64,000 nucleotides of DNA from the NCBI GenBank assembly GCA_964187785.1, contig OZ076409.1:11906001-11970000 (forward strand), read 5' to 3'. The DNA is from Amphiscolops sp. MND2022. Lineage: Eukaryota. The translations under genes and the position numbers were made by a program. Under the pieces are notes generated by a model. That model was not told the DNA's origin, searched no databases, and worked only from the letters and a program-made list of their open reading frames with translations. Positions 7,532-64,000 of the stretch are shown here, one piece after another; position 1 is the stretch's first letter; every line of letters starts with the position of its first letter.

Positions 7532-7729
7532 TGTTGTAACTCTCTTCTATAACTGTGAATAACATTGACAATTCAAACTTTATTCTATCTTGTTCTGAGA
7601 CTTTATGATAGTTCATCATCTGCATACAATAGGCAGGTACTTGATAAAAAGAACATCAACAGTATAGTAATAATCATATAAATACAGACTAATTAACATG
7701 TATGTAAAGAGTCTGAGTCCTCTACTACA
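7532..7729 (-). repeat. 3' LTR of element B
   Basis: TG...CA termini; preceded on minus by PPT GAAGGGGGGAA (7730-7740). Confidence 0.97.
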
Positions 7730-10700
7730 TTCCCCCCTTCACTATTGGCTGTCGACTGGCCAATGGGGTTTTGTGTAGCTTCTGTATGGCGGTGATTCCT
7801 CCAATGGTCCATATGTTTGTGGACGGATAACCGGTCCTCGCATTGGCTTTTGTCACAGTGTTCTTCTATCCGTGACGTCTGTTTGTTGTCTGCCTTTGGT
7901 TTTAATTCTGGTTGTTTGTTTCCATATCTGTTTGGGTTTGGCCCGGTGCTTCTTCCGAGTTCAGCCTTTCTACGGTGGTTTCTGTAATCATGACATATTG
8001 GGTTATTATATCTGATAATTGGGTTAGTTTTTGGTAATCTTTTCGATCTGCGTACTTTTTTTTCTTCGCGTTTAACATCTCTTTCTAGTTCAGTACTTGA
8101 GCTCAGGTTGTTGGCAAAATCTAGATCAAGGCTATTCTCTTCCCCCTCGTTAGGGAATGTATTATCATTATTAAACGCCTTACCGTTTTCGTCTCTAATA
8201 AAAAGCTCTTCGTTGGCTTGTTTCGCGTCGCTGATAGCACGGTTGATTTCCGTGTCCGTCATGTTGGTTGTTATGGTGAGCGGGCCGGTGCTTTTGTTTG
8301 TGCCCCCCGGTGTGCTGTGTGGTGAGCTTGACTCCGACCGTTCCCGTTTCTGTACTGGTTTGCCTCGGCCGAATGTACCCTTTTTGACCGTAGTGTTGTC
8401 TGTTTGGTCCGGCGTTGGCTCTGACTCGTTGTCTGACTCCAGTATATATGTCCTTCTTGTTTTGGATGGAGACTTCGTGAACCGGCCATCTGGTCCTCTC
8501 GGCCCGGTTCCTCTGTTGTTGTTGCAGTCCTGGTTAAAAGTATTAAGTGGTTTACTAATACATTTTTTATGTATTATTCTTCCATTCGGTGTTGTCACCG
8601 TGTGTTTTGTTCCGGACACGGCTATGTTCGGTTTATCCATGTAGGCACTTTCGAATTTTGATTTTTGATGTTTTTTCTCTAAGAAAAGGAATGGGTAGTT
8701 ACTAACTCCTTTATCGTTTTTCTTCGGCTTCATTGGTAGCTGGTCGGACACACCGCCGGCTACACTGAATGAGTATACCTGTAAGGTATCTGGTTTTGCT
8801 GAAATGGAATTTTCCGATAGTTTCTTCAAGCTATCTAAATTTAGTAGGTTACTAACTTCCGTGTTTGGACTTCGGCCGTAGTGTAATTCGAAAGCTGATT
8901 TTTTTCAGTCTCGTGTGTGGTGTTTTACGCATTATTTCTAGAGCTATATCTAGAGCTTTTCCAAAACGTTCTCCGGCTTTTAAGTTTGTTAAGAGATTTT
9001 CTTTGAGTGTTCTGACTCCTCTCTCTACTGAGCCTGTTGGGGTATGAATATACGGTGTGCCGTATATCAATTTGATGTAATGTTTTTTACAAAAATCGCG
9101 GAAGAGGCGTCCTGTGAAAGCGGTTGCTTTATCCGATCTGATCGTTTTCGGTATCCCATTTAGTTGGACATACTGTTCGATAAATTTTACCGCCGTTTCT
9201 CCGTCCGTATTTTTGCAAAAGCTGGCTGCCGGTCATTTACTAAATCGGTCTATGGATAGTAATATATAAAACCGGTGGTTATTTTCTGTAATCGGGCCAA
9301 TGAAATCCATTTGAATTTTCTCGTTCGGATTGTTTACCGGTGGTAGATTGTTTTTCTCCGTATACGGTATGTTAGGTTTAATGCTCTTCGCGGACATTTT
9401 GCATGGTATGCAGGAGTCGCACTTTTTCTGAATGGCTTCGGTTATCCGTGGCCACCAGAAGTGTCGGGCTGCTAGGGTCATCTTGTTGATGGCCGGGTGT
9501 CCTTTGTGTAGCAAGCTTATAACCGTGGTGCGTAGATTCTTTGGGACCACGATTTCGTCTTCCATGAATACGAGGCCGAATCTGCTTGACAATTTCTTTC
9601 TGACTGGTAGATATTCTTCGGGTATCAGCTCATGTTGCTGTCTTTCCAGACATACTAGTGTTTTCAGTAGGCTGGCGTCGTTCGTCGTCTCTGTCATAAG
9701 CAGCTGTAGATCGGTAGAAAAATTTTTCTCCGTTTCTCGCACTGCTTGTTCCAAATTCCAGTCGTTTTGTTCTTCGGCGGTTATTTTTGGAGCGTGCCCC
9801 ATCTTCACGTATTGGACGCTCTTTACTCCGACATAGCGTGCCCAATTTATTGCCGGTACTTCTAAGATTGATGGGTCTTGATCGGTGTCGGTTTCTATTT
9901 CGCCTTCCTCCATCGGTGCTGTCTGGATGTAAGTTTGTTGAGATGGTCCGGGTCTGTCATGTTGGACTGGGGTGGGACGGTCCATGTTCCAGTATGGATC
10001 AACCGTCCATTGTTCGCTGTGTCTAGTGGTTGGTACAAAGCCTCCCGTCTGTTTGGGGCTGATTCTTTGTCTAAGATCTGCCGTTTAGTGGTTTCTCATA
10101 ATTTGTTGCAGTCTTTCTTCATTGCGTAAGAATTTTGGTTTGTGATAGCGTTTCCATTTTCCCCCGGTTAATCGATAAATCCCGGGTTTAACGATTTCTC
10201 GCCAGCGGTTTATCAATTCAATTGTTTCCGCGGTTGGGTTTGCTGCTTCAATTTCGTTTATTGTATTTGCGTCCATTGTCAATTTGATGCTTTGGCAGTG
10301 TTTTTGTTTGAAGCGTGTTAACGTGTCAGTGTTAAGGCAATCAATGGCAGTTCGTCTATGTGTGTCGCTGGTCCGTGGTTTGTTGTTTGCTTTGCGTTCA
10401 CTTTTCTCCGTTCTGTTCTCTGATTGGTCAGTTTGGTTGCTAAGACAACCATATTTGGAGATAAAGTTGTAGTGCGGTAATATGTTGTTGATTACATATT
10501 CTTCATCGTATGCGTCATCTGTTTGCGGTGGTAGTATCGGATTTCTACTGAGATAATCCGTGAGTGCTAAATGTTTACCGGCTATATGGTGTACGTTGAT
10601 ATTGAAATGTGCTAATCGGTCCAGCCACCGTGTTAAGCGTGCGTTGTAGGTTTTATTGGACTGGTTCCGCTTGATTAATGGTTCTAGTGCTTGATGATCG

Positions 10701-13316
10701 GTTAAAAGTTTGATCGGTTTTCAGTAAATGTATAAGCGGAAATGTTCTAAACCCCATACTACCGCCAATAATTCAAGTTCATTTATTGCGTATTTCTTTT
10801 CGGTGTCTGAAAGGAAACGACTCGCGAAGCCAATCGGTTTTAATTTCCCGTCCGGTTGTTCTTGCCATAGGGTTGCCCCCAAGCCTTTTGTGCTTGCGTC
10901 CGTTGTTATCACGTTTGGGTAATCTGAGTTGTAGTGAGCCAAACACGGTATCTCCGTGATCTTTTGTTTTAAGTTTTCGAATGCTTGTGTGTGTTCTTCG
11001 GTCCATATCCATTCGTTCTTTTTTTTCAGTAACTGTCTCAAGCTGTCGGTTTGGGCGGAGAGGTTGTCAATATATTTTGACAAGTATTGAATGGCTCCCA
11101 GAAATGATTTTCGTTCTTTTTCATTTTTTGGTTGTTTTAGTTCTTTTATGGCTAACAACTTGTCTTGAAGTGGTCGGATACCGGCCTGGTCAATTTTGTG
11201 GCCTATCCATTCGATTTCCGTTTTGAAAAATTTGGACTTGTTTTCACTCAAGCGGTATCCGGCTTTTTCTAGTCTGGTTAGGACGTTAATCAATTCTTTT
11301 TTGTGTTCTTCCTTTGACCCTTTAGTTACGACGATGATGTCATCTAACCACGCTGGATGTTTGTTATCCAGTGTTTGGTCAATCTTCTCCTGAAAGACCG
11401 TTGGTATATCCGCTAGACCGTAGAAGCCCTTTAGGAAGCGGTAGTAACCGGTAAAATTTCCCCCGGTTACTGCGAATATGCACAAGTTTCTAGCTTCTCT
11501 TGATAACAGTAGTTGTCCGTATGCGTAATCTAAATCGAATTTTGAGATCCATATCTCATCTGCTGGACCATCTGCTATTTTTCTTGATATCCGTGAAATC
11601 AATTCCTCCATGTTAGGCATTTGTGCCTTTCTTTTCACGGTTATTTCATTCAATTTTCGCGAATCGAGGGCGATTTTTATTGACTTGTCTTTCTTTACCG
11701 TGATCACGGCTGGACTTACGAAGCAGTTTTCGTCGATATTGTTGGCTTTTTCGATATGTCCTTGTTTTATTAGTTTTTCTATTTCCTTCCCCACCGATTG
11801 TTGGAGGTGAATCGGTATTGGCCTTCCTTTCTGTTGTATCAGTTTCGCGTCTTCTTTTAGTTGTATCTTTACTTCCAGTCCATTTACTGTATGGTTTTCT
11901 GTGAAAAGTTTCTTGAATTTCGTTTTCAATGATGTTATGTCTGGGTCTTCTTTTATTTGTTGTATTTGTGGGACGGTTTTGTCCGTCTCCAGCGTTATTC
12001 CCAGCTTTTTCATCCAGTCTAGGCCCAGTAATGGGTTGGTTCTTTTAGTTGTCACTAAAATTTCCAGTTCTTTTTGTTTTCCGTCGATTTCCACTTTGGC
12101 CGTCGTTTTTCCTTCAAATTGTATCCGGTTATCGTTTACATCCCTGTATTCCGTTTTTAGTGGATGTAAATGTGTGATGTTGTTGAATAGTGATTTTGGT
12201 ATTAATGTTACCGGTGATCCGCTGTCAATGATGAATTTGATTGGTCGGTTATTGACCAGTGCGGTGATTGTGAAGAAGTCCGGTCCGTTGCTGTTTATTG
12301 ATCGTGTTGAATGGATCTTTTGTTTCACTGAATGGGTTGTGTTCGGTGTCCAATCGTCTTCATTCGCGCTACTTGTCTCTTCCTCCATTATATGGTTCAC
12401 TCTTTTATTTGTGCGGCAACATTTGGCGAAGTGGCCTATTTTTCCGCATTTTGCACACTTCTTTCCTCTGGCTGGGCATTCATGTTGTCTTGACCAGTTT
12501 GGTGCTCCGCAACGGTTGCAGTCGACTTTTTTGAATTTTGTCGGTTTTTCCGGTTGTTCTTTTGTTGGTTTTATTTTACGTTTATTCAAGTAACGTATTT
12601 TCTTCTCTTCTGTTTCGGGTGAGTCATTTTGTCGTAAGTGTATTCTAGTATCGCGTCAGTTATTGCTTCTACCGACATGTCACTCTTTCTGATTTTTTTC
12701 TTTAGGTCGTAGTCTCCGGTTGATTTTCCGATGACTGACAACAATTTTGGTGCTAGAAGTTCTGCCGCGGTTATTGTTTCAAATTCCCATTTTTTTCAAT
12801 TTCTAGTATTCGTTTCCACACGTCTGCTGCAGATTCACCGTCTTCTCGTTTCAGGTCGAAGAAATCGGCTCTACTATGTTGTACGTTCCTTTCCGGTGTG
12901 AAGTGTAGTCGGAAAAGTGTGTAAAGTTTATACAATGGTAGTGAGCCCGGTTCTCTCTCTCTGATTGTTTTTGTCATTTCCGTGATAGCATTCTGTCCAA
13001 TTGCCCAGATGAAAATATCTTTTATTTCCGTTTCGAGTTGGTCACGGTAATGTGTCAGTATCTCTTTGTTGTTTGTCATGGTTGATAGGTCAATTTCTTT
13101 CGTCCTTTTTATGTATTGGACGAATTTTCTCCACCACAAGTTTGCACTGGTGTGGTCGTGTTTCTCCAGTGTGGGAATGGTCTATTCCTGAGTGCAGGTC
13201 CGGTCAGCCGTCCTGTTCATTGTGTCGTTCGGCAATGTTTGGTTGGTTTGCCGTGTACCCGATGAAGACAGTATGGTGTTTCCATCTCTTGGGTTTTCTT
13301 CCGTATTTTCATCCAT
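7693..13316 (-). pseudogene. Element B gag-pol, broken by several stops and frameshifts
   Basis: ATG at 13316. Gag knuckles CNRCG..HEC..CAKCGKIGHFAKC; protease IDSGS; RT DLDYAY...WLDD; RH TDAS...ELE; IN H-H-C-C, MDFIGP, RSD, VER. Confidence 0.92.
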
Positions 13317-13379: not shown

Positions 13380-13577
13380 TGTTGTAACTCTCTTCTATAA
13401 CTGTGAAAAACATTGACAATTCAAACTTTATTCTATCTTGTTCTGAGACTTTATGATAGTTCATCATCTGCATACAATAGGCAGGTACTTGATAAAAAGA
13501 TCATCAACAGTATAGTAATAATCATATAAATACAGACTAATTAACATGTATGTAAAGAGTCTGAGTCCTCTACTACA
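13380..13577 (-). repeat. 5' LTR of element B
   Basis: 196/198 identical to 7532-7729. Confidence 0.97.
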
Positions 13578-25776: not shown

Positions 25777-26519
25777 CAGAGTTGGAACCAAGCACATGGT
25801 TAAATGCTGCCGGGCGGGCTTTTTCGATCTTGATTGTTTTCGGGCCGGGTATAACAATTTGGAAAATGAATCGAAAATTAAACTGGGCTATATAATTTCC
25901 GCAATTGATTCCTTTTATTTGCTCGCTGTAGATTTGGACGCTCGGTAATTACACATACAAATCTCTAACTATACAATTACAGAGACAATTACATGTAAAA
26001 TATTCTCAGCCAAAAAAATTGTGATTTGATTTCTGTTGTAACACAGAGGCGAAGCGGTGCTTCGCAACACATGACGAAGACGAATCATGGCTAGACGAAT
26101 GCCGAAAAATCGTATATATTCAATCGCATGCGTATATATTCAACAGTTCAACTTTGTTCAATAACGTCCCTATGGGTCACAGTGGTCAACACGTATGCCG
26201 TGCAATCGTGAGGCTGCAGGTTCGAATCTCTCTGGGGTTTTGGCTTTTATCTAAAAGGCGCTCATTATGAAGTTGACTATTGTGGAAAAAAAACTTACTT
26301 AGCTGGACTGCAATGCACATTGACTTCGTGATGTGCAAAAAATAGGATTTTTGAATTCTCATGATGCGTATACCTGATTATCATTTACAATTTACCTTCG
26401 CGTGTCAAATTCGTTTTCGGTCAGTTTCGTCGGGTATTAAAAATGTTCAAAAATATCGGGTCGTGTTAGGATTTTTGAAACGGGCTCGGGTAGAAAATCA
26501 TGACCCGGTTCCAACTCTG
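25777..26519. mobile_element. hAT-type MITE 50 bp downstream of the ceramide synthase stop
   Basis: TIR CAGAGTTGGAACC/GGTTCCAACTCTG; 8-bp TSD AAGGTCAG/GAGGTCAG. Confidence 0.8.
26041..26342 (-). mobile_element. HINE-like family 2 with an internal tRNA-like segment, nested in the hAT MITE
   Basis: Second copy at 51048-51339; subterminal IR CACATGACGAAG/CTTCGT(C/G)ATGTG; stem-loop GCGAAG..CTTCGC; B-box GGTTCGAATC. Confidence 0.7.
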
Positions 26520-45200: not shown

Positions 45201-48200
45201 AATACTTTGCCCCGGGCATATTTTTATTTAGAAGCATATCTTAATCATTCATATAGCGCGCAATTAATCACTACCAGTTTACAACGCCTTTAATTCTTCT
45301 CGGACCAAAGAAAATGTAACTACAGTGCTGTGATAAAGAAATGGAACATAAGGCTGTGATAAAGAAATGGGACTCTCCAATTTTACCTAAATAAACAAGG
45401 CATCGAGGGTTTAATTGACATGGCCTCCTGTCGTTGTTTAATTTAATAGACGCTGATAATCCGCTGACAATCCATTTTAACAAAAAGCCCCAAACCACAG
45501 TGAAACAACGATTTCTTGTTATATCTCTTTATAACAAAGGAAAATCTGTCAATTTCATCTCAAAATCAATGAAAATTCCTAGAACAACCATATATAACAT
45601 AATACAACGATACAAAAAGGACCCAACAACCCTAGAAAATAGACCGAAAACCGGAAGACCTCAAATATTGGACAAGTTTGAGCAAAAATTAATTATTAGA
45701 AAGTGTTTGGCTCAGCCAAATCTGAATTCTACTCAACTTTTGGCGTCCCTAGAGTTATCACAAAAAGTTTCTACAAGTTACGTCCGGAAGCTGTTATTGA
45801 GAAACGGATTACAAGCAAAAGTTTGCACTTCAAAACCGTTTCTTTCCAGAGCAAATCGACTTAAACGATACGTTTGGGCAAAAGATATGTTACAAAAATC
45901 CGACCTTTTTGGAAAAATGTGCTGTTTTCGGACGAAACAATGATTGAGTTGTTCCCAAAACGGAGAAATTTTGTCCGCCTACCCAAACAGAGTGGAAATC
46001 GGCAAAAATATGTTGGTCAGCATGCTAAATTTGGCGGAAAAAAGATGATGTTTTGGGGTTTTATCAAAGAGTCAGGTGAAAGAAAGTTGATAAAAGTGGA
46101 GAATCGTGTCAATTCAAGCGTTTACACCAACATTTTGGCCTCTCATTTGCTTCCTCATATGTATTTGGTGAAGTTTTGCAGCAAGACAATGCTCCAGCTC
46201 ATAAATCAGCGGAAACTTCTACATGGTTTCTCGAAAACGGTGTTGACGTTCTCGAAAATTGGCCCCCAAACTCGCCAGATCTCAATATCGAAAATTTGTG
46301 GTCTATTCTGAAAGGCAGAGTTGCGAAGAGACACCCCAAAACTTTGGAGGACTTGGAAACTTTTGCTCTTGAAGAATTTTACGCAATTCCTGACGAGTAT
46401 GTACAAAAACTTTTCAAGTCGATAAAAAATCGGTTGATTCTAACTAAAATTAACCGGGGAGGTTTCACCCGATATTGAAAGCTTCAATATTTTACCTAGT
46501 TTGTTAATACTGTTTCAATATTTTCATGAGGTTGTTCAATTGAATGTTTTTCATTCAGTCCCATTTCTTTTTCACAGCCCTATGTTCCATTTCTTTATCA
46601 CAGTACTGTACTAAGCGTAGACAAACTTTCGCATTCGCATTTGAATGCAAGCGAAGCTCTCGGCGAACGAATAATTAACACTCGTTCGCCTTATCTCTAA
46701 CTCGGCGTACGAAAGCATAATAGCAAACATTCACTCGCTTCATCTCAATGAATTTCGCGTTTCATTTCAAAAAAAGAATTCAGATTTCAATATTATTCCT
46801 GCTATCAGAGAAATAATAAAAATAACTTAATATATGATTTTCAACAACTATTCAGAACTAAAATAAAGTTAATCACATCCAATATAATTTCACATGCAAT
46901 GTTATGCTCTTAAATCACTGGATCATTCGGTGTTATTAGTTCAAAACCTCTCACGAGTCCAAAAGCTTCCAATAAAAGAGCAACATGAATAAAAGAACAT
47001 TTCAGTAGTTGAGGGGAGAAGCAGTTAAAATTATTATTCTCATTCTCAAAGACTGGCTGCAGTGAATTGACTAGTGTACTGAAAATCGTGTATCGTGTTT
47101 TTAGTCGGCGCTTTTCTTAAGAAAAGAGCCCGACTATTACAGTCACTCGTTTTTTTTTATTTAAGACAGACTCGAAGCGACGAACGTTAAAATTAACGTT
47201 CAACTACTAAAGAAAGTACTAAACTACTGGACCGGTAAAGGCAAACGGGGAGCGCATTCATTTACTTTTCAAACGTTACCTACAAGCCCGGACGGGACTA
47301 AAGGGTCCCCCTTTTCGATTTTTTTTCGGCACTGTGCGACATTTTCCGAAAGAAATTTTTTTTCGAAAATTTCAAGTTTTTTTCCAAAAAAAATGTTTTG
47401 CGCTTTTTGAGCCTTAGATATAGCGCCGACTTGAGACGTTCCCGTCTTGTTCGTATATTTTTCTCTAAAGCATCGGTATTGTGTACGAAAAATGGTGTAC
47501 GGTACTGTGTATCGACTGTAAAAATCAAGTTTTTGGTTGGATATTCATCCAAAAACAGCATGTTTGACAATTCTTCAAATTCATTGGTAACAGACTGTTT
47601 TATTGGTAACATCTCAAATTACGAAAAGAGAACATTCTATCTACCGATCCAGGACCTACCGCAATGGATAAAATCTCCATGGAACTAGATTTTTGATCCC
47701 TTATTCTAGTTCCTTTCTTCGTCTGAATGTCAGGATAATTTCATTGAAATAATTTTCAATTATTTTCGTGTCCAACGGAACGCCGTATAAATTTTATACT
47801 CATTTCGGAAGACAATGAAATTCAAGAAAATTCGTGCATTTCGATAGGGTACATGTACCGACGTCAATTCATTGCGTACAAGTAAGGGAGTCCTGAAAAA
47901 ATTCAGTTCGCAGAGAAGTTTTGGACTAATGATTTGTGGATATATAAACAGACATTGTGAATGTCACAAACCTTATATGACAACTGTATTGGCAATGTTG
48001 TACAGGCTTTGTTCAACATCAAGTTGGACCGCTACAAGGGATTTGCAGAAAAGGTGGGCAAACTGTTTCCTGCCCTGCAAGCCCAGCTGAGAAGTCCATT
48101 TCGAAGGGTGAGTAATCAATCAATCGATCATGATTTAACAGCGAGTGGCCGCTAGCAATGAAATGATTCATGTTCTGACCAAGTTTCCTTGTTAAAATTT

Positions 48201-51200
48201 AATCAAACTGTTTCTAATTCAAGACATTTATGTACAAAAAGAACAAAGCACTACTGAACCATCTTTAAAATTTGTTGTTGATCAACGGTTTTGAAAAAGA
48301 CGTGAAATGATTGACAATTGAGGAAGCCACATACAAAAATCCACAAATTTGGCAAAAACGAACAAACCGAACGTGTCAAAGGCGTTAAATATCAAAAAAC
48401 TGAATCCGCAGAACAAACAGATAAAATTGAAAAACATGATCAATAGTTGCAAAATATCCCCCCCCCCCCAAAAAAAAAATACTCTGCGACCTGAGGACTT
48501 TTTAATTCGAAATTGCCAATACTAGTAGTGATAACTAGAGGCACCCAAAAGTTACTAGGTTCCATACGTTTACAATTCTGTGACAATTCACTTGCCAGGT
48601 TACATAAAGTTACGATCGTAGAGTTTGATTTTTGCGGTTTCCTGTGTGAGAAAATCCTGATTTCAGCTGTAAATTCTGACGATTTATCTAATTTTTGATT
48701 GGCCAATGCTTATATCTGTTCATTTTCAAATGCGATGGGCTAGAAATTGGCAAATGTTAATAAAATGCCTAAAAGCAGAGCCGGAAACTCGAATTTTGTT
48801 GACATTTTAAAATTTCAAGCATGTATCATTAAAATACAATTTCGAGTTTTTTAAGGTTGATTTGGGTCCCTAGTGATGACATTTATAACATGAAAAAATG
48901 GAGTCGAAAACTTTTTCTCTCCGTTTAATAATTTTGTCGCAAAATTGCAGATATTTCCTGGAAAGAACGAAAAGAGGATGGCTCAGATGCTGGAGGAGAT
49001 TAGACAGACTTGCAGAGACATTATAAACGACAACCTACTCAACAACGGGCAGGGTGGAATTTGCACCAACGTCAACATGTGTGCTCAGTCCCAATCAGGT
49101 AACGGCTTCTGATATCAACACCCAACTTGCACTCATAATTAAAAAGGCTTGAACTTTCACATGAATCAGCATGCATCGCATTTTCTGCATGCAATTTCGG
49201 CATCTGATGCTACTTTCTTTAACAATCGAGAAATTGCCAATAGTCAATCCTTTTGGTCTCACTTCTGCAAAAATTGTCCATTCCGGGAATCGATAATCAC
49301 CATTTCCTGATCTCCAGTCACAGTCACTCCCGCGTTAACCACTAGGCCAAGTGTCGGGACAAGCACGGTAATGGGAAAGCAGTTAGAAATTTATAGAACT
49401 GTCAGTTCGCTGACTAACAGAGAATTTTGAAAATGAGAATTTTGAACAATCTCACAGTGTCGAAAAATGTAAAAGCATTTGGACTTTTTCAACATCCATT
49501 CAGATGCAAAATATCAAAAAAAATTGAAGGCAGGACCCTTTGGAGATATTTAAAAAATTTCCAAAAGTCTCACAAAGCCGAAAACGGGGAAAGTCTCATA
49601 GTGCCGAAAAAAATTGAAAGTGGGAGGGACCCTTCGGCTTTGGAATGGTTTTGTATTTCATGTTAGAGGCTTTAGATGCGTTCAAAATGTAGTACCAAGT
49701 ACTTATGGTAAAAGTGCATAATGCACAAAAAGTGGTACATACAGGGTGAGCTTTTTGGTCTGACGAAAAAAACTAGCCACTGTAATAGTCGGGCCGACTA
49801 AAAACCACTACCGGTCTGCGTTTTATACGTAAAAGCAGACTGAAAATCCGTCCGTTTAAGGATGAGTAATATTTATGCAGCTGCGACAAAATGTCATTTC
49901 ATGAAAATTCGCAAAAATATTCAAATTCCAGTCAATTTCTCACTATCTCATTTTGAACTTCACAAGAATTGCAAAACTAACAGGTTTCGTTCAAAGCATT
50001 CAAAACTTGGCATGTTACCTGAAAAAACAATCTCTATGCTTGGGTTCAAAATATAGGGATAACGAACTTTTGCATCCGCTGAAGCACTTCAAGCTCACAT
50101 ACTAATTGGCCAAAACTCTTAACTCGCTAATCGAATGGTTCAATTTTGCAACTAAGAAAAGAAATTAGCGGTTCAATTTTTCACTCTGCTCACGCAAAAC
50201 CGACGAGCTATTCAAAAGATAAAATCTCTACAAAATAGGCCCCTGCGGGGCAGTATTATTTCTGCTTTAGGCTTTCATTTTCAATAATAGAAGCACATCT
50301 TAATCATTCATATAGCGCACAATTAATCACTACCAGTTTACACCGCCTTTAATTCTTCTCGGACTAAAGAAAATATAACTACTAAGCGTAGACGAAGTTC
50401 CACATTTGTATTTGAATGAAGGCTAAGCTCTCGGCGAACGAATAATTAACGCTCTTTCGCTTCATCTCAATGACGTCAGCGTACGAATGCATAATTACCA
50501 CTCGCTCGTTCCATCGCACGAGAATCGAAATGTCGTCGGCAGCTTGAGAAATTTAATTCTCACGCTTACCACTCACTGTTGAACAAATTGTCTAAATTTT
50601 TCAGTACGTGTTCAAAATCGCGGCGAAAATTGAACTGAAAAAAAGTTGGATTGTTGAGATTTTAATATTATTCCGGCTATCGCAGAAATAATAAAAACGA
50701 AGCACAGAGGGAATTGTTGGAAAATAACTTCAGAAAACCGGCATTACGATGACATGGTTGACGAAGTTCTTGTTATGGTGATGGCGGGTACCGACTCCAC
50801 AGCCAACACATTGGGATTCCTAGTGAAAGAAATGTGCAACTACGCGCCATATCAAGACAGGTAATTGAATTTCAGTTTCCTTCAATCTCATCTTTGCTTA
50901 AGCCGTGCTCAATTGTTTTTAGTTACTAGTCGCCATTGACACCTCTGATTGTATTTGTAACCTTATGACGCATAGCCCCCACCCCAGTTGCACCTCCTGA
51001 AAAACAGGTCCCTCAAGCATTATTGGGGACGTGTCGTTCATAAGATCCACACAGAGGCGAAGCGGTACTTCGCAACACATGACGAAGACATCGATTATTT
51101 TAATATGCGTATATATATTATTTTAATCGCATGCGTATATATTCAACAGTTCAACTTTGTTCAATATCGTCCCTATGGCACACTGGTCAACACTTATGCC

Positions 51201-53376
51201 GTGCAATCGGGAGGCCGCAGGTTCGAATCTCTCGGGGTTTTGGCTTTTTCTAAAAGGCGCTCATTATGAAGTTGACTATAGTGGAAAAAAACTTACTTAG
51301 CTGGACTGCAATGCACATTGACTTCGTCATGTGCAAAAACTTCAACAATATAAAGATGTTCCCTAGATACTTCAAAATTTAGAAAAGAATTCTCATAGAT
51401 AGTGTAAAATGTTTCATCGTCGGTACAGAATGGCGGGAGAAATATTGCGAGCAATGGATGGAGATGACAAAGTGGCCACCAGAAATTTCCTGTCCAAGCT
51501 GGTGTTCACCCAGCAAATGATAAACGAGACTTTGCGCAAATACCCCACCATCTGTGGCACTACAAGGACATGCAAGGAGGACACAGTGATCAGCGGAATC
51601 AAAATACCCGCTAATACCGTTATCATGGTAAGCTCTACACTAAGTGAACCAGAAACGGAACACACAAAATATTCACTCTTCAAAATCGTGATATTTGTAA
51701 ACAGACACTGATAATCTTTCACTTTCACTGTCAACCATCCTCTCATTACGTAATCAGAACTTCAACAAAGAATGAGCCGAACCTTCAGAAACGTCTAGAT
51801 GTCTTCACAAGCCATTTCTTTTCGTTCACACTTTAGATGTGTGAAAATTGATTTGCTTCGAAGAAAAGTTGTCAAACTGTCTGACTGAAAAGTGGAATGG
51901 CAATGTTCAGAGTTGTTTCGAAAAATCCAAAAACTTTACCGGAAACGGTAATTCTGACATTTTTGAGAGAAATTGGACAAAGAAAGAAACTTTAGTCGGG
52001 TATTTCGAAACCCCAATTTCCCGACAAACCCATCAATGGACAATTTTTGAATGCCATTTCAGATAAGCACGTACTTACTTCACCACAACGAAAAATACTG
52101 GAAAAACCCATCCCTCTTCGACCCAGAAAGATTTGCTGCTTCTGAGAAAACTGTGGAAACGGAACCGGAAACGAGCAACAAAAGTGAAGGAAAAGTAAAC
52201 GATGCAACGGAGCAGGAAGTGAACGCTAAAAAGAACTGCTTTCTTCCATTCTCTAAAGGCCAACGGGTTTGCATAGGAGCGAACTTCGCCAAGGTTAACT
52301 GTTTTAATTGGATCCATTTAGAATTCAAACTTCCATCATCAGAAAAATTGGCATGTTCAACGACACAGCAGTCATGACCTGAAATCATGATATTTTAAAT
52401 TTTCGTTGAATGAAACCAAAAGCTTTTCGACTTCCATTTTTTCTTTTCCGACAAAACCGATAGATCCCATTGGAACTTGCTCGAGAAGATTCTTGCTTTC
52501 GTTTTTTTTTCAAGATTTTTGATCCTTCAATGGATCCATGTTTTCTTTCGGTGTAAATTGAGAAATTTCATCATAAATTAGTTTGGCTTTTCCAGTCAAT
52601 GCATCCAGATTTTCGTATTACGTGCTCATTTAGTATTTCTGGACTAATAGTCTGTAAAAATTGCGATTGTTTTGTTGATAAAAGGGAGACCTGTCACCAA
52701 CCACCACCTACAACCAAAAATTCGTTCTTATTGATGCTTAGCAGTGTATTGACTTGCTGGGTGATTATCTCTTTTCACTTAGGACCGCTTTTTGGGACAC
52801 CGCTTTCGCTTAAAGCGCTTTTTAATTTTCGCTTATTCGCTTTTGAAAAGTCTGCTTTTTATCTCTTATGTAACGTAACATTGCTAAAAATAATTTGAAA
52901 AATAAATTGAAGAAACAAGGCTTTCAAGAACAGGAGATTTAGAAAGTACAATTCCACAGTGAGTCGGTGTAAAGATGTTAATTGAGATGTAAGCGGTGAT
53001 CAGCGGTATGTTAAGAGTAAGTGGTTTGATCTAGTTCGTGAACAGCTTCTCTGAACAAATAACGAATCAGCCACTCACACAAGCAATACGCTTTCTCCAA
53101 CTTTGTTAACTTTTAAGTCTAAGTGACGTTTTTATTACATCCGCTTTCGCTTATGTCGCTTTTATTGTATTTGCTCTCGCTTTCGCTTATTTAGCACTCT
53201 CGCTTTAAGCGGGTCAATACACTGATGTTTAGATGGAAATGCAGATTGTGATGGCTCGGCTATTGTCACAATTCCACGTCGAGTGTCTCAGTACCTCTGA
53301 CGACTTCAACGAAGCCTTGGCTTTGAGGCCTGGGGATTCTGTACCAGTGCGCCTGACGAAACTGGTCAAGCATTGA
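36226..53376 (+). CDS. Cytochrome P450, microsomal, CYP46/clan-4-like, 12 exons
   Basis: Exons 36226-36341, 40193-40273, 40614-40695, 42053-42126, 42806-42892, 43854-44001, 48006-48107, 48951-49098, 50734-50860, 51429-51627, 52063-52293, 53233-53376 join in phase. Motifs: TM anchor + PGPP, WAMKR, AGTDST, ETLR, PERF, FSKGQRVCIG. Confidence 0.9.
36354..36701. mobile_element. hAT-type MITE in P450 intron 1
   Basis: TIRs CAGAGTTTTTGACA/TGTCAAAACCGTG; perfect 8-bp TSD GTTGGAAC. Confidence 0.85.
37347..37877 (-). mobile_element. HINE-like family 1 element, decayed
   Basis: AAGTCGGCGTCATATCTAAGGCTCA end and family body; tRNA-like GAGACTCGAAACC inside. Confidence 0.5.
41148..41550. mobile_element. 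MULE/foldback-type MITE with GACATTACGCCCAA arrays
   Basis: Inverted tandem arrays; perfect 9-bp TSD TACGGAAAG. Confidence 0.9.
44557..45051 (-). mobile_element. HINE-like family 1 element
   Basis: AACAAGGCGGGGAAGTCTAAAGTCGGCACC ... GCGCCGACTAAAAA. Confidence 0.6.
45323..46608 (+). mobile_element. Tc1-family DNA transposon in P450 intron 6
   Basis: 52-bp TIRs (CAGT.CTGTGATAAAGAAATGG..., with two internal direct repeats); TA TSD at 45321-22 and 46609-10; empty paralogous site near 50380. Confidence 0.95.
45434..46478 (+). pseudogene. Tc1 transposase with two frameshifts
   Basis: HTH + GRP; WKNVLFSDE; MFWG; QQDNAPAH; WPPNSPDLNIENLW, spread across three frames. Confidence 0.93.
47098..47451 (+). 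mobile_element. HINE-like family 1 element
   Basis: TTTTTAGTCGGCGC...CCGACTA; GCGCCGACTTGAGACGTTCCCGTCTTGTT. Confidence 0.65.
49400..49804 (-). mobile_element. HINE-like family 1 element, truncated
   Basis: Family body; ends TAGTCGGGCCGACTAAAAA. Confidence 0.5.
50253..50693. mobile_element. Non-autonomous element with short TATTATTTCTGC/GCAGAAATAATA terminal inverted repeats
   Basis: Paralog spans about 45068-46817 and carries the Tc1 insertion and an inverted duplication. Confidence 0.6.
51048..51339 (-). mobile_element. HINE-like family 2 with a tRNA-like segment
   Basis: Near-identical to 26041-26342. Confidence 0.7.
52742..53224. mobile_element. hAT-type MITE abutting the last P450 exon
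   Basis: TIR CAGTGTATTGAC/GTCAATACACTG; CGCTT subterminal repeats; 8-bp TSD ATGCTTAG/ATGTTTAG. Confidence 0.85.
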
Positions 53377-57429: not shown

Positions 57430-58940
57430 ATTTTCCCGTGTCTTACCCTTGTATTTGAGTTTCCCACATTCATTTGTATGATGCCATTTTGCGTCTAATG
57501 GGTATTATTCTTTTTCATTTGCTTTTTGAATTCAATTTTAGCCATTTCAACCGTTTTTTTGTTTTTCGAGTTACATTGGAGTCTATATATTTTGCGTGCT
57601 TCTCTCAAATTTTTTGATAAGTGAGTCAATTTTTTGCTCCGGTATGGTTTGGAATTATTACAGAGTGTTTTCCGTGGTATCGAATTTTCACAAACTCCTT
57701 TCACTAGGCACATAAATGTTAGGAGAGTTTTCGTAGGTGCTTCCGTTTTCATGCTATTCATGTTTTCCAGCATATTTTCCAGTTGTACACTTATTTTTTC
57801 CCAATTTGCCATTTTGTTGTTTAGCCACACCGTTTTGGATTATCATTTTTCACAGGAATATCTATATCAAATAGAACAGACCGATGACCTTGCTCTGGAG
57901 CACCAGAGAAGAACTCGATATCTTCGATCACTCGTGCATTGCATACCAGATCGGAGCAATTTTGTTCAGTGATGCAAAAATCGATTATGCTGCTACCTTT
58001 TTTGCTTGCTGAGACAAAAGTGGGCTGGTGAGGGCTTATTATAGAAAGACTATTGTCTGCACAGTAGTCGGCCAGTAATTTACCATATTTAATTTCTAAT
58101 TTATCGCCCCATAGCGGATGCCTCGATTTCCAATCCCTGAAGATTATTGGTCCGGTTTTATTTTAGACCAGGAAAATTTATAGTCATAGCTAAGAGAAAT
58201 TGTTTCATAACAAGTTGACTCTGTTCAACTTTTTCCACAATTCCTAGTACATTTCGCAGTTTTTTATCAAATGCTGTGTGATCCTTGCCGCAATTCACAC
58301 AGTAGAGTTCATTTGGTGGGATACAATCTTTCGCATGTTCTTGCTTTTCCTGGCATGTATATTCTTTATGACGGTTTGTTGGGTGCTCGTAGCCACAGAT
58401 GGCACACCACGATTGGTTTCTACAAAATTTGGATACATGGCTACCCCACTGTTGACAGTTGAAGCATTGAATAATCCGTTTGGTGGTACGTTTTGTGTCC
58501 ATCTTGAAGTTTATATACTCTAGCGTAATCCCATTTTTAAGATATTTGTTGAACGTGCATTTTTTCTGGGAAACTAGTTCCACTAAAGGTATGGCCTTTC
58601 CGCCTTTGATGTATCGGATCACTTGAATTTCTTCCCCTTTTTCACCAGCTAAAACATTCTTGATGTCATCAGTGGGAATTTCAACCGGCACTTCTCGGAT
58701 TATACCCCTATGTGATCTGCTTTCATTCAGTGAAAAATCTCTAGTATCTGTCCCGAGAAGATTCGAACACCACTTGTTTTTCACTCTAGTGCAATACTCT
58801 TAGTTGTTAAATAATAGTTCAATCTTGCCAAGCTTGTTGGTAAAGATGAAATCCAGTTTGATACCGGGGAAATGAGTATACAGCCTCCGTTTCTGTAATA
58901 CACTAAAAGAAAGAATATCATCCTCTATTGTGCCAAAAAT
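57430..58940 (-). mobile_element. Decayed non-LTR retrotransposon (ORF1 with three Cys/His knuckles + partial AP endonuclease)
   Basis: QCFNCQQWGSHVSKFC, CAICGYEH, CVNCGKDH; APE-like GDWKSRHPLWG...PTF...SIIDF at about 58140-57975; no RT present. Confidence 0.8.
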
Positions 58941-59064
58941 GTATAGTGTTTGTTCATCAGGATATTTACGATTATCAGTACAAGTTTCCTTTGCATTAGT
59001 GAGAGGTTTTTATGAAACTTTGGATGCATAAGAGGAAATATTGGTATTAAACGAGGTTACTAAT

Positions 59065-60578
59065 TGTCGCAGGCTGCCGCCTGTGACGGCGTGGCTTACC
59101 AAATAACCCCGGAAAATGATCTCAACAACCCAGGACTAGGTGTCCTGCCAATATAAAATAAACACTTAGAACTCATGTGATATACTACTATATATTGTTG
59201 CATTACTCAATACACAATAATCATAATCATTGGGTGCTTAAATTACATGTGATTCACAATTATTTCAATATGTTGACCTAAGGTCAGTTTGATGGCAATC
59301 ACTCACTTTAGTATACTAAAGTGTCAAAACGTTAGCGAAACACCCTACTCATTTGCAAATTATTGTATCAGTGCTAATACAAAACCTGTTGCAGTTAAAA
59401 TACCAATGTGAAGTTGACGTAGTTAATATCAACTAGTAAAGAGTGAAGACAATGCATTCACCTGCCACTATGTTGCTGCCGGGTCGACGCGCAGTACGCT
59501 GTACCCTTGTCCAAATAAATATAGCAAAATGTATTTAGTTGCCGCCACGTGGACGCAAGGTCCACTTAGCCGATAAAAGTTAGATGTTGTTCCCCAGTGC
59601 ATGAAATGTTGCTTACTAGTATTAGCATACTTTAACATAACTGCCGCTTCTATTTATAGAATTTTGGATTAGTGACGTAATATCTCTAGTGACGCCATGT
59701 TCTATTTATAATATCTGTGATGTCATAGTTAGATTGATCGCTATTTTTATAATGATGTCATTCCTATTTTTACTTAATGACACTCAGAATATTGAGTGTC
59801 ACGGATGTAAAAGTATAAATAGGAGGAATTTGTTACTAGAAATTCATTCAATACCTGCTTTGTGATACAATTGACACTGTTGATACAATTCTGATCATTC
59901 GAAATTTACTGTTGAAACGTTATTTTCTTATTGACATGCCTTCTACCAGGAAGCAGAAAGCTAAAGAAAAGCGAGCAAGACAATCTGACGTAATGTCAGA
60001 CGTAGAAAACCTTGATATAATGCTTGGAAGTTATTCCAGAGATGCACAAGTAGAGCAAGGTAACATTAGTGACGTTGAAGGGGACTTTGAGTCTGATAGA
60101 CGCCAACAGAGCACCGACTTAGTCGAAGGAAACTTCAGGTCACTCTTGAATACCAATGTAAGTGAAAATAGTGAAATTACGGCTGAAACTATGAGAGCAA
60201 TTAACTCAGAAATTTCATCGCAAATGTCCAGAAAATTAGATGAAATGAAATCAGATTTGAATTTGCAAATAATGGATGCTATAAACTCAGCAATTCAGGA
60301 AAAGGTACTTCCCTCCATTGAAAATACGTTAAATTCGGTTAAAACCACTCAAAACACAAAATGGGACATTCGGTCAGATGGACGGCATTCCAGTTTAGTA
60401 GGACAGTCTGCCTCCAATAGTGACCCTCGGTCAAGTGGACGGCACCAAAGCGCACAAGCACCGTTAGACTTGAAATCAAGTGGAAATCGGCCAAAATCTA
60501 ACCTTAAAGAGAGTAACCTTTACAATCGCTCCAGAGATAGTTCCGTAGATTCTATTGAGAGCGATGTCGTTTACGACA
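59065..60578 (+). repeat. Inferred 5' LTR of element C (about 1.51 kb)
   Basis: TGTCG...CGACA inverted termini, followed directly by PBS-like TGGTGACAGGAG (60579-60590). Confidence 0.65.
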
Positions 60579-61715
60579 TGGTGACAGGAGCCAAACTTAC
60601 CCCACATATAGTCCCAGAATTCCTGACTATGATTCCTGACTATTCCTGAACATCAACAAAACGATGATAATGACGACACGCTGGATACAACCCTTCCAGC
60701 ACAACAACCAATACGTACCAACACCACGGAGGGCATCACCGAACCTCCAGTTGACCCCATTAATAGACTTGCAGATGTGATTATGGGGATGAATACGAAA
60801 CCATCCACACAAACCCTCATGGTACGCCCAGTCAATACCACAACACTGACCTTCGACGGCAAATCTGAAAAGTTTGAACTGTTTGAGGATCTTTTCCACA
60901 CGATGATAAAGATGCAACCAGACATGTCGGAAGCAATGAAAATTAACCATTTTTACTCACTGCTCCGCAAAAATGCATTGCAGACATTCCGCAACATCAG
61001 TTCGGCAAACAGACAAACTCTCGAGAATGTCCTAGCCGTCTTTCGCAGTAAATATGTGAAACCAGAGTCCCAGGCAACGGCCAAACACAAATGACATAAA
61101 CTGGTTTTTGACCCAAATACCATGAAATTACCTGACTTTTTAGAAGAACTCAACCAAGGCGCTGAGAAAGCCTTCAGTGAACACGCACAAGCCATGATTG
61201 ACAGCCTGCTATACGCCAAACTACCACCAAAACTCAAACGTTCAGTCAATATGGCGCGATTAGAGAACGCTACATATGAAGAAATTGTCACTCACTTAGA
61301 ACGTGAGCTCGAACTTAATGGACTTGAGGAAGGCGACGACATTCCCGTTCCCACAATGTCCACCACCCCGACAACAACACGATCGGGTAAAGGCGTCCTT
61401 TCTTCTGGCATTGACCCAAACGTCACTTGCAACTATTGCAAGAAACTGGGACATGTCAAGGACGATTGCAGAAAATTGAAAAGAAAGGAAGAACAAAAGC
61501 TCAACGATGGGCAGGGCACCAAAAGGGAGTACCCGAAATGCCCGACTTGTGGCAAAAAAAACCACCCGGCCGAACGATGTTGGAAAGGAGCTGGAGCCCA
61601 CCTCAAGCCCAAAAACCTCAAACTGCATAACGACCAACCTGAGGAATCGACTTCCAGTCAAAAAGACGATACAAACAAACAGAATACTTCCATCCTTAAA
61701 AACTCAAAAAACTAA
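59936..61715 (+). pseudogene. gag: Element C gag (frameshift near 60630, TGG>TGA at 61092)
   Basis: Collinear with element A gag; CNYCKKLGHVKDDC and CPTCGKKNHPAERC knuckles. Confidence 0.88.
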
Positions 61716-64000
61716 ATTTGCCACGACTTCACATTAACGAAAAACTGCGGGTCAGACAATATATAATATCTGACCCCCCTTTTGTTTATTATACTGAATA
61801 TTATTCATCACTTCGACAAAACTCATCAGCTGACTGGCAGCAGCAGGTGAAAAAAACTCCTATCAATTTACTTGACTCAGACCTTCTGTCCAATAGACTA
61901 CAATGTAACACCACTACCATACGGCCCATACCCCTCATAGATGAATATAATCCATACTACCCTGACCCAGACTTTGGTTTTGACCTTTATTGGGACGCTC
62001 AGATCTACAACCAACCTCATCTCTATTTCTACAACAATTCCAACCCAAATGATTCAAGCAAAGAACCCGATTCATATAACGATGGTCGAAATCTCAACCT
62101 AGCTCTGACCAAGGCTCTGATAGACCCTTGGCAAACTAAAAGGACTACCAAGTTGGCGGTTCAGGAAGACCCCGCGCAAGACTCTTCTCAAGACGGACCT
62201 GTGGTCACCCTCACTGCAACCGTCGAAGAACGCTTTGTGAACACGCTCATCTCACGAGACGGTGAACCCGACTATGTTCCGTTGACAACAAACCTCGGAC
62301 TAAAATATAAAAGACGCATGCTCTATTTTCCAATGGATTTTGGCGAACTCACATTAGATGGCCTTATAGACACGGGAGCCCTATCTAGCGCGATCCCAGA
62401 TGCTGATCTACGGAAAATCCGATTACTTGCCCCTCAATCAATAGTTAAAGAGGGCCCAGCTCCCAATTTCCAAATCATGGTTGCAAATGGACAACTGGAG
62501 ACTCCCAAGAGCACTGTCGAACTCAAATTTGAAGTCGGGGACATCGAATTCCACGAGATATTCATAGTCATGGAAAAGCTCACAAGTCCATTAATTGGTC
62601 TCTCATTCCTTCAACGGAATAATACCATCCTGGATATGCGACAGGGAGTCCTAAACTTCCCATTCTTTTCCATGCAATTGAAAACAGCGGATCACAAGTA
62701 CACCAATGTCATGGAAACCCGTCAGTATACGCGAGGACATAACTATCCCGCCCAATGACAGACACATGGTTTCCATGTACTCCAATATATATGCAGACAC
62801 TAATGTCACAGAAATCCTTCAACCGAGCAACGCCCTCACTGAGGACGGAGACATAGCCTTCTGCGCTGCTCTAGTCACACTGACTCAAGGTCAGGTTTCG
62901 ATTCATGTGAATAATTTCACTGATCAACCCTATACCCTTAAACGGGGGTTGGACATTGCCAATTTCTCTGTCATGACGCCAGAGCAAATGAAATACGTCA
63001 AACCTATTGACGCTGTGACCACATGGCACCTTTTACAAGATAATCCAGAAAATGCTGCCTATTACGCCAGTAGTTTAATCAAATCTACAAAAACTGAGGA
63101 AGACCAAGGAAACTATTGGTTTCCTACTCCAGAGGAGCCTGGTGATCCCCAGCTCCATACTCCAATTCAGCAAAGAATCTTGAAGGAGTTAAAAAACCTT
63201 CAAGAGCTGGAAAAACTCAACCCTCAGGACGACCCTGAGTCCAGAACACAATTCATTGCTAATTTTGACTGGACAGACTCCACGTTACAACCAGACGAAA
63301 TTGCCCAAATTGAGGAGCTACTTGTCGAATTCCATGACATATTTGCAAGACATCGATTTGATATAGGCATGAACGAGGATTTCAAGGTCAAGCTCACACC
63401 CAAAGATGAATCCCCAGCCTATAGCCAAAGTCTTCCAACACCGATTAATCTCAAAGAAGACATTCTAGTCGAATTGGCACTATTGCATCGATATGGAATC
63501 ATAACAACGCTTCCATTCTCTAAATATGCAAGTCCAATCTTTGCCCAGAAAAAACCAAACGGCAAATTACGACTTTTGGTCGATCTTCGCAAAATTAATA
63601 ACCTCATCTCTGATGATTATATTAACAACAATCATCCTGTGAGTACCTTAACAGACGCCGCACATCATATGGCAGGTAAACGATTGTTCTGCAAATTAGA
63701 CTGTTCACAAGCGTATCACTGCCTACAAATGGCGGACCAGAGGTCCATTGAGATGCTTGCATTCAACTTTGCTAGCAGGACCTTCGCATACCGCCGACTG
63801 GCGCAAGGCCTCAGCAGAGCCCTTTCTGCCTTTTCAAGCTTTATGCGTGAATACTTGGACAAAGTGATCAAAGCTGACCAATGCGCAGAGTACGTCGATG
63901 ATATCGGAATTGCAGCAAACACGACTGAACAACTGATTAGAAACCTCCGAGCGACGTTTCAGTGCATCCGAAATGCAGGGCTCAAACTCACGATGCACAA
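61706..64000 (+). pseudogene. pol: Element C pol (pre-protease domain, protease, RT start), one frameshift near 62720
   Basis: -1 frame relative to gag; LIDTGA protease; RT SKYASPIF..KLRLLVDLRKIN..YVDD. Confidence 0.88.

Follow-up and report, generated by a model that had tools for sequence, protein, structure and literature searches.

Element C is a Ty3/gypsy-type (Metaviridae-like) long terminal repeat (LTR) retrotransposon. It starts near the downstream end of the window, the 64,000-nucleotide stretch of Amphiscolops sp. MND2022 DNA analysed here (contig OZ076409.1, positions 11,906,001 to 11,970,000), and its gag frame opens well inside its 5′ LTR. That LTR (59065..60578, on the forward strand (+), as are the features below unless marked otherwise) runs from TGTCG to CGACA over 1514 bp and is 99% identical to a 3′ LTR at C1:11980047-11981560, with 16 differences in 1514 positions. 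The complete element measures 16,496 bp and is flanked on both sides by the target-site duplication (TSD) CTAAT (5′ copy 59060..59064, no strand assigned; 3′ copy C1:11981561-11981565, outside the window). A sister copy on C12 (16,427 bp, 98.7% identical to the window copy) has the same LTR ends, the duplication GGTAT on both flanks and 7/1514 differences between its LTRs. When the LTR from its second base together with the primer-binding site (PBS), 1525 nt in all, was searched against the 1.07-Gb assembly, four places matched at 99-100% identity: the window and C12 copies aligned over query positions 1-1525, LTR plus PBS, and their partners 15 kb downstream over 1-1513 only, stopping exactly at ...CGACA. 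The purine run GGGGAG stands directly before the 3′ LTR in both copies. In the pol frames, Pfam finds gag-asp_proteas, RVT_1, RT_RNaseH, Integrase_H2C2 and rve in that order, all above their cut-offs. TG...CA LTRs with 5-bp TSDs, a PBS and purine tract, this order of pol domains and a Gag core with a knuckle place the element in the Ty3/gypsy group, and integrase domains that follow reverse transcriptase (RT) and RNase H exclude it from Ty1/copia.

An earlier note on this DNA, made from its letters alone, had proposed an LTR of about 1.5 kb that encodes about 214 codons of gag, and the 3′ LTR with its CTAAT flank now proves that boundary. The LTR extends from 59065 to 60578, and therefore 643 nt of the open reading frame (ORF) that begins at ATG 59936 lie inside it (59936..60578): 214 codons and the first base of codon 215, the final LTR base, 60578, falling 642 nt past the A of the ATG. 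The other landmarks given in the note are present as described, namely a TATA box at 59814, no TGG between it and the ATG, TGTCG at the element start, and TACGACA|TGGTGACAGGAG at 60572-60590, 642 nt into the ORF. The PBS, TGGTGACAGGAG (60579..60590), had been suspected of matching tRNA-Leu, and it is complementary at 12/12 positions to the 3′ end, including CCA, of host tRNA-Leu(CAG/AAG). Genes for tRNA-Leu(CAG) (L038:1440-1521, called by ARAGORN, and L041) and tRNA-Leu(AAG) (L045) end in ...CCCACTCCTGTCA; with CCA added, pairing covers the entire 12-base PBS and stops there. The terminal A of the LTR and the TG of the PBS form an in-frame ATG at codon 215, just as the note had read it (YD-M-VTG), and the PBS in this frame, (A)TG GTG ACA GGA G, reads Met-Val-Thr-Gly.

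The proposed fusion of this segment to Gag holds in the C12 copy and its relatives but fails in the window copy. In the C12 copy, the ATG opens an unbroken frame of 595 codons that crosses the LTR end, translates the PBS as M-V-T-G and continues through a DUF1759 domain (residues 309-439, 28.3 bits against a cut-off of 25.4) and knuckles; the zf-CCHC match, at 17.5 bits, is below its 20.8 cut-off, and the CX2CX4HX4C pattern is readable by eye. In the window copy, the frame continues past the PBS (60591..60649) and is cut by a premature stop at 60647-60649: at about 60651 this copy differs in length from the C12 copy by 8 nt, which shifts the frame. The Gag core follows in the shifted frame (60653..61715), with a DUF1759-like domain, a CX2CX4HX4C knuckle region and an in-frame TGA at 61092-61094.

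Conservation and selection of the LTR-encoded segment

With the 214 LTR-encoded residues as a protein query, the genome yielded 24,677 first-look candidates, and 150 of these were scored and listed. Among the 150 matches listed, 139 are stop-free within the match and 39 (by hand count) lie in open frames of at least 595 amino acids (aa). Most of the others listed sit in frames of ~220-300 aa, typically 14-15 kb from a long frame, as would be expected if the two belonged to 5′ and 3′ LTRs. When the 595-residue Gag was compared by tblastn with 30 loci from the genome search, 5′-LTR loci aligned to Gag 1-595 and their 3′-LTR partners to 1-214 only. Loci that bear a PBS align over most or all of Gag, in a single frame for L008, L018 and L023 and across several frames (two or more) for L007, L012, L017, L021, L022 and L029; for L015 and L016, alignment stops at residue 244. 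In protein databases, a word-indexed search gave 137 matches, all of them ENA proteins, and a profile search gave 1026 clusters.

The junction with the PBS keeps its phase throughout. In four diverged lineages the LTR part comprises 214, 215, 216 or 252 codons and enters the PBS in the same phase, and wherever the LTR frame is unbroken the offset from ATG to PBS is 643, 649 or 757 nt, always 3n+1. The 38-codon length difference between lineages maps to a stretch of D(L/P)(R/K)S-x-G repeats (in the window, about 60365-60505). In 3′ LTR copies, similarity stops directly after ...GYD. A fifth and far more abundant family has 181 LTR codons plus 1 nt, with the junction ...GSY|MVTGA and again the same phase into the PBS; its segment is only ~30% identical over the first 140 residues, and its Gag core is highly similar. 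Its matches come in pairs with a spacing of 14.1 kb, the 5′ member having a 562-aa open frame and the 3′ member one of about 185-250 aa. Genome-wide, the exact junction pattern TAY-N-ACA|TGGTGACAGGAGC occurs 1086 times, compared with 0 occurrences of a reversed-pattern control.

The fifth family itself (L049 = C12:42540887-42541573, reverse strand (-), and L050-L054) is very young and abundant, with copies 88-99% identical, 15,489 first-look candidates and a Gag of 560 residues. It occurs in regular tandem arrays, for example at C5:3361675, 3375777, 3389879 and 3403981, and one of its 3′ LTRs lies about 570 bp upstream of the C12 sister copy of element C.

Selection on the LTR ORF, a check that the earlier note had suggested, was estimated by the Nei-Gojobori method for 11 pairs among 12 sequences from four lineages. 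In the gag frame, which guided the codon alignments, the LTR part has a ratio of nonsynonymous to synonymous change (dN/dS) of 0.18-0.36, and differences are in excess at third positions (for example, 40/28/76). When these alignments are read in either of the other two frames, the ratio is 0.73-1.35, and the downstream Gag core gives 0.08 in the single clean inter-lineage pair. A chance open frame is rejected by these tests. Whole-codon insertions and deletions, together with stop-free copies, provide support that is independent of the dN/dS alignments. Nucleotide sequences of different lineages become similar at the ATG or a little upstream of it, and the middle of the upstream LTR region (U3) has no detectable similarity. 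These comparisons indicate an N-terminal extension, about one third of Gag, that is encoded in the LTR, evolves fast yet under selection, and is present clade-wide.

The most conserved stretch is the N-terminus, MPSTRKQKAKEKRxRQSDVMSDIENLDVMLG, a motif that recurs in the ~30%-identical fifth family; the basic part (59936-59983) is followed by an acidic disordered stretch. The helical segment that had been read from the sequence is borne out over residues 83-139 (60182-60352), where AlphaFold2 predicts one long helix with a predicted local distance difference test (pLDDT) score of 73-90, the sole usable part of the model; the rest of the extension is predicted to be disordered. A conserved basic N-terminus resembling a nuclear localization signal (NLS), combined with a helix, suggests a targeting signal and an interaction module, and the extension may thus be a matrix-like addition to Gag.

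Expression of the frame and rival readings

The predicted promoter lies upstream of the frame within the LTR. A TATA box, TATAAATA (59814..59821), is followed 32 nt past its start by an initiator-like TCATTC (59844..59849), the predicted transcription start and thus the predicted start of the R region. Both features are conserved: TATA(A/T)A(T/A)A stands about 120 nt upstream of the ATG in 8/8 aligned LTRs from 4 lineages, and TCATT follows about 30 nt after it in these 8 LTRs, ~90 nt upstream of the ATG. The ATG at 59936 is the first one past the TATA box, and none occurs between the predicted transcription start and 59936. Two lines of reasoning would put the ORF in R/U5. First, the positions of the TATA box and initiator predict a start near 59846. 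Second, a segment selected as part of Gag must be present in genomic RNA. A U3-encoded accessory ORF is rejected, as the ORF lies downstream of the conserved TATA box and initiator and is fused to gag. Within U3, a cluster of motifs resembling cAMP-response elements (CRE), TGACGTAA, TGATGTCA and ATGATGTCAT (59673..59761), is partly conserved in other lineages (TGACGTAA/TGATGTCA upstream of TATA) and could serve in regulation, a function suggested by the motifs.

We consider it very probable that element C is a member of a large clade of gypsy-type elements, 14-16.5 kb in length, in which the Gag frame begins deep in the LTR. We propose that transcription starts ~90 nt upstream of the ATG, at the conserved TATA box and initiator, giving a genomic RNA in which a short leader would be followed by 181-252 gag codons in R/U5. 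Translation would then cross the LTR end, read the tRNA-Leu PBS as Met-Val-Thr-Gly and enter the Gag core, a path that the sequence of the frame itself lays out. The extension, with its basic NLS-like N-terminus, long amphipathic helix and repeat-containing disordered tail, could play a matrix-like role in targeting or nuclear import and in multimerization. Primer annealing and synthesis of minus-strand strong-stop DNA (~730 nt) would take place on translated sequence, as in Ty1.

Several points weigh against this model. The window copy, frameshifted after the PBS, cannot make the Gag fusion. The junction ATG at codon 215 could act as a second start, giving a shorter Gag. The transcription start, the poly(A) site, the use of ATG 59936 and the size of Gag are all predictions from sequence, and a scan of nine LTRs downstream of the predicted start, as far as the LTR end, found no conserved AATAAA, ATTAAA or common variant; in the element C family (window 59845-60578), AATAAA and ATTAAA are absent and only the variants AATGAA and TATAAA occur, leaving 3′-end formation unexplained. 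The dN/dS pairs share lineages, and their alignments, guided by the tested frame, slightly favour the gag frame. With respect to a functional role, Pfam gave nothing for the 214 LTR-encoded residues, a PDB profile search with the extension gave nothing at E values up to 1, the best ESM Atlas score for the extension was 0.76, which is not usable, and the AlphaFold2 model, built on a 50-sequence but shallow alignment, has a mean pLDDT of 41 and a predicted template modelling (pTM) score of 0.18.

How the frame behaves outside full-length elements bears on the alternatives. Both LTRs derive from a single template, so that the promoter and the ORF are present in every 3′ and solo LTR as well, as the earlier note anticipated. 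Alignment of 5′ with 3′ LTRs, which it had called for, places the whole ORF segment in the 3′ LTR, up to codon 214 plus one base, so that the 3′ LTR does not end upstream of ATG 59936. The search for solo LTRs found L020, which has a perfect GTTCC duplication, no internal sequence upstream, no PBS downstream and an open frame of 218 codons, and L013, which is flanked by CCCAA/CCCAG and has two stops in frame. In total, LTR-only frames, whether 3′ or solo, are 218-273 aa long and read out into host DNA, with C-terminal tails that are arbitrary host sequence.

These frames could be taken to mean that the LTR ORF mainly yields a separate product of ~200 residues, made from the promoters of 5′, 3′ and solo LTRs, with its continuity into gag being secondary. 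Many short predicted proteins (80-300 aa) top the profile search, and the segment changes far more quickly than the Gag core (~30-60% compared with ~75-85% amino-acid identity), both as such a product might lead one to expect. We nevertheless judge this account improbable: no lineage has a stop codon at or near the LTR end, the strict phase into the PBS and gag would be needless for a free-standing protein, and the arbitrary tails of the LTR-only frames also count against it.

Still less credence attaches to the proposal that the LTR frame is open but belongs to an untranslated leader, conserved for RNA or LTR functions, with Gag starting at the junction ATG or further downstream. The junction ATG is nearly invariant, as this would require, though the PBS sequence forces an ATG at this place, and most of the extension is predicted to be disordered. 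RNA-level constraint alone, however, predicts neither dN/dS values of 0.18-0.36 with third-position excess in the gag frame only, nor length changes that are all of whole codons, including the difference of 38, nor freedom from stops in 139/150 listed matches, nor a frame kept open into gag across five families. According to the third alternative, the 1.5-kb repeat would be no true LTR, its boundaries being misassigned, for example through a segmental or tandem duplication that took in the 5′ end of gag. This view could draw on the 14.1-kb-spaced tandem arrays on C5 and on an element on C7 with 187 extra bases at the repeat start and no clear TSD, but has next to no chance of being right and is rejected. 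Two independent copies show perfect 5-bp TSDs beyond their TG...CA ends; in both, a PBS immediately follows the 5′ repeat and a purine run immediately precedes the 3′ repeat. A solo repeat has its own TSD, and the 3′ repeats of many elements end at the identical base.

Dispersed 3′ and solo LTRs, which number in the thousands, could additionally act as promoter-plus-ORF units that make a free N-terminal Gag fragment acting in trans, an idea that we regard as speculative and unlikely. Such a product would consist of the basic N-terminus and helix with a short host-encoded tail. It might serve as a dominant-negative or copy-number-control factor, by a logic like that of the truncated Ty1 Gag p22, or it might instead be fused onto downstream host exons. 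Were this true, placing one third of gag in the LTR would be an evolved way to leave a regulatory gene at every insertion, and to leave it behind after every LTR-LTR deletion as well.

Other features of the elements and of the window

Downstream of the Gag core, the window contains the aspartyl protease frame with its DTGA motif (61718..62758) and the start of the pol frame, which encodes RT and leaves the window (62706..64000), with RNase H and integrase beyond. Between protease and RT (window 62750-63000), there is a weak dUTPase-like match (E 0.005, 17 bits, under the 22-bit cut-off), located at residues 15-98 of the pol frame of L031:4182-7679.

The 7-kb stretch between pol and the 3′ LTR contains a conserved antisense gene in several pieces, with frames of 744/678, 186/211 and 380 aa. 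It is found outside the window at about C1:11973000-11977100 for the window copy, at element positions 7946-12055 (-) in the C12 copy, and at L048:467-2698 (-) and L047:8372-9511 (-). Protein similarity between two lineages outlasts nucleotide similarity, for example in a zinc-finger-like C-x2-C...H-x-H motif, and a canonical GTAAGT...YAG intron of about 100 nt interrupts the same codon in both. Pfam gives only a weak zf-C2H2_ZN292 match (E 0.001), a PDB search with the antisense gene gave nothing, and the ESM Atlas (0.85) offers leads only, to mollusc clusters and to zf-C2H2_12 and zf-BED/ZBED5-like proteins. L047 and L048 together form the relative on C7 (C7:53008970-53025090), whose repeat is 1727 bp long and begins TTGCTC; the 187 bases at the 5′ end of this repeat are absent from relatives, and no clear target duplication was seen.

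The tRNA-Leu 3′ end (GTTCGAATCCCACTCCTGTCA) is found 980 times, 966 of them on one strand (C8:35587099-35636985 and further; L035-L037, L040, L042-L044 and L046). Many copies lie in a tandem array with steps of ~236-296 bp. At dispersed sites, a 45-nt 3′ portion of tRNA-Leu with CCA adjoins TGTCG..., an LTR end, which hints at elements in which a much larger part of the primer is copied into the PBS region.

Just upstream of element C, on the opposite strand, a 208-aa frame (58158-58784 (-)) with the knuckle-like motifs CFNCQQWGH..C and CAICG..H may be a fragment of another retroelement. Elsewhere in the window, direct repeats occur at 7532-7729 / 13380-13577 (99% identity, 5848-bp spacing) and 45229-45323 / 50288-50382 (95% identity, 5059-bp spacing), and a tRNA-like unit resembling a short interspersed nuclear element (SINE) occurs twice, 25 kb apart (26119-26292 / 51122-51291). 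All three pairs are probably the other elements labelled in the earlier note.

Significance and relation to known systems

By convention, LTRs are regarded as non-coding regulatory sequence, and annotation pipelines divide an element into its ‘LTR’ and its ‘internal’ part. For elements such as these, Gag models built from internal regions come out truncated, and gene prediction turns solo and 3′ LTRs, which may express protein, into short ‘genes’. The LTR sequence would be subject to protein-coding, promoter and reverse-transcription constraints simultaneously. The clade is abundant and young, with 24,677 and 15,489 first-look candidates for two N-terminal queries and 1086 exact junctions, and offers a natural system for studying how translation, packaging and priming share one RNA segment.

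Protein-coding sequence within an LTR has precedents, as sag of mouse mammary tumour virus (MMTV), nef of human immunodeficiency virus (HIV) and pX of human T-cell leukaemia virus (HTLV) lie in or overlap U3. These accessory genes sit ahead of the point at which the promoter initiates transcription, use mRNAs that are their own or spliced, and are distinct from Gag, whereas the ORF of element C lies downstream of the TATA box and forms the N-terminus of Gag. For MMTV, the available text of one report places the sag ORF in the 3′ LTR (PMC2118998).

Among retroviruses, the glyco-Gag (gPr80) of murine leukaemia virus (MLV) resembles the element C product in that Gag is N-terminally extended from sequence upstream of the standard start. 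According to the portions available of PMC3265304, this extension comes from the leader, adds a targeting function, is initiated at a CUG codon (nt 357) downstream of the PBS (nt 146-163), and spans 264 nt. On that account, glyco-Gag is an alternative isoform whose start lies after the PBS and thus outside the LTR, whereas in element C an AUG in the LTR, 643 nt upstream of the PBS, opens the frame and the PBS is part of it. Extra coding capacity beyond gag-pol is likewise shared with plant Ogre, Retand, Grande and RIRE2 elements and with fungal Boty. In the available sections of PMC7264820, the additional ORFs of those elements are placed in the internal region rather than the LTR, and antisense ORFs are described between pol and the 3′ LTR of large gypsy-type elements. 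These antisense ORFs resemble the antisense gene of the element C clade. The segment studied here, by contrast, forms part of gag and is no frame of its own.

A full-text literature search, in whose coverage older transposon papers and Repbase are largely missing, found no LTR retrotransposon with a long LTR-encoded part of gag. Given this limited coverage, a prior description is possible, and we do not rate the arrangement as categorically new.

The nearest precedent is Ty1, a copia-type element with a 334-bp LTR and a tRNA-iMet primer, as compared with a gypsy-type element, a tRNA-Leu primer and LTRs of 1.5-1.7 kb in the present clade. In the accessible part of PMC5454406, Ty1 RNA has a 53-nt 5′ untranslated region and a PBS at RNA nt 95-104 inside GAG, and the TIPIRT domain takes in 327 nt of the GAG coding region. 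As far as that account extends, the two systems share a principle, since in Ty1 and Ty2 of Saccharomyces the GAG start lies in R/U5, as is predicted here, upstream of the PBS, the PBS falls within the GAG frame, and cis signals for priming overlap coding sequence. By the same account, they differ in scale: ~14 codons precede the PBS in Ty1 compared with 181-252 here, or 13-18 times more. Unlike that of Ty1, the LTR part of element C is a recognizable, selected protein segment. The arrangement in element C therefore extends the Ty1 principle more than tenfold, and into the gypsy group.

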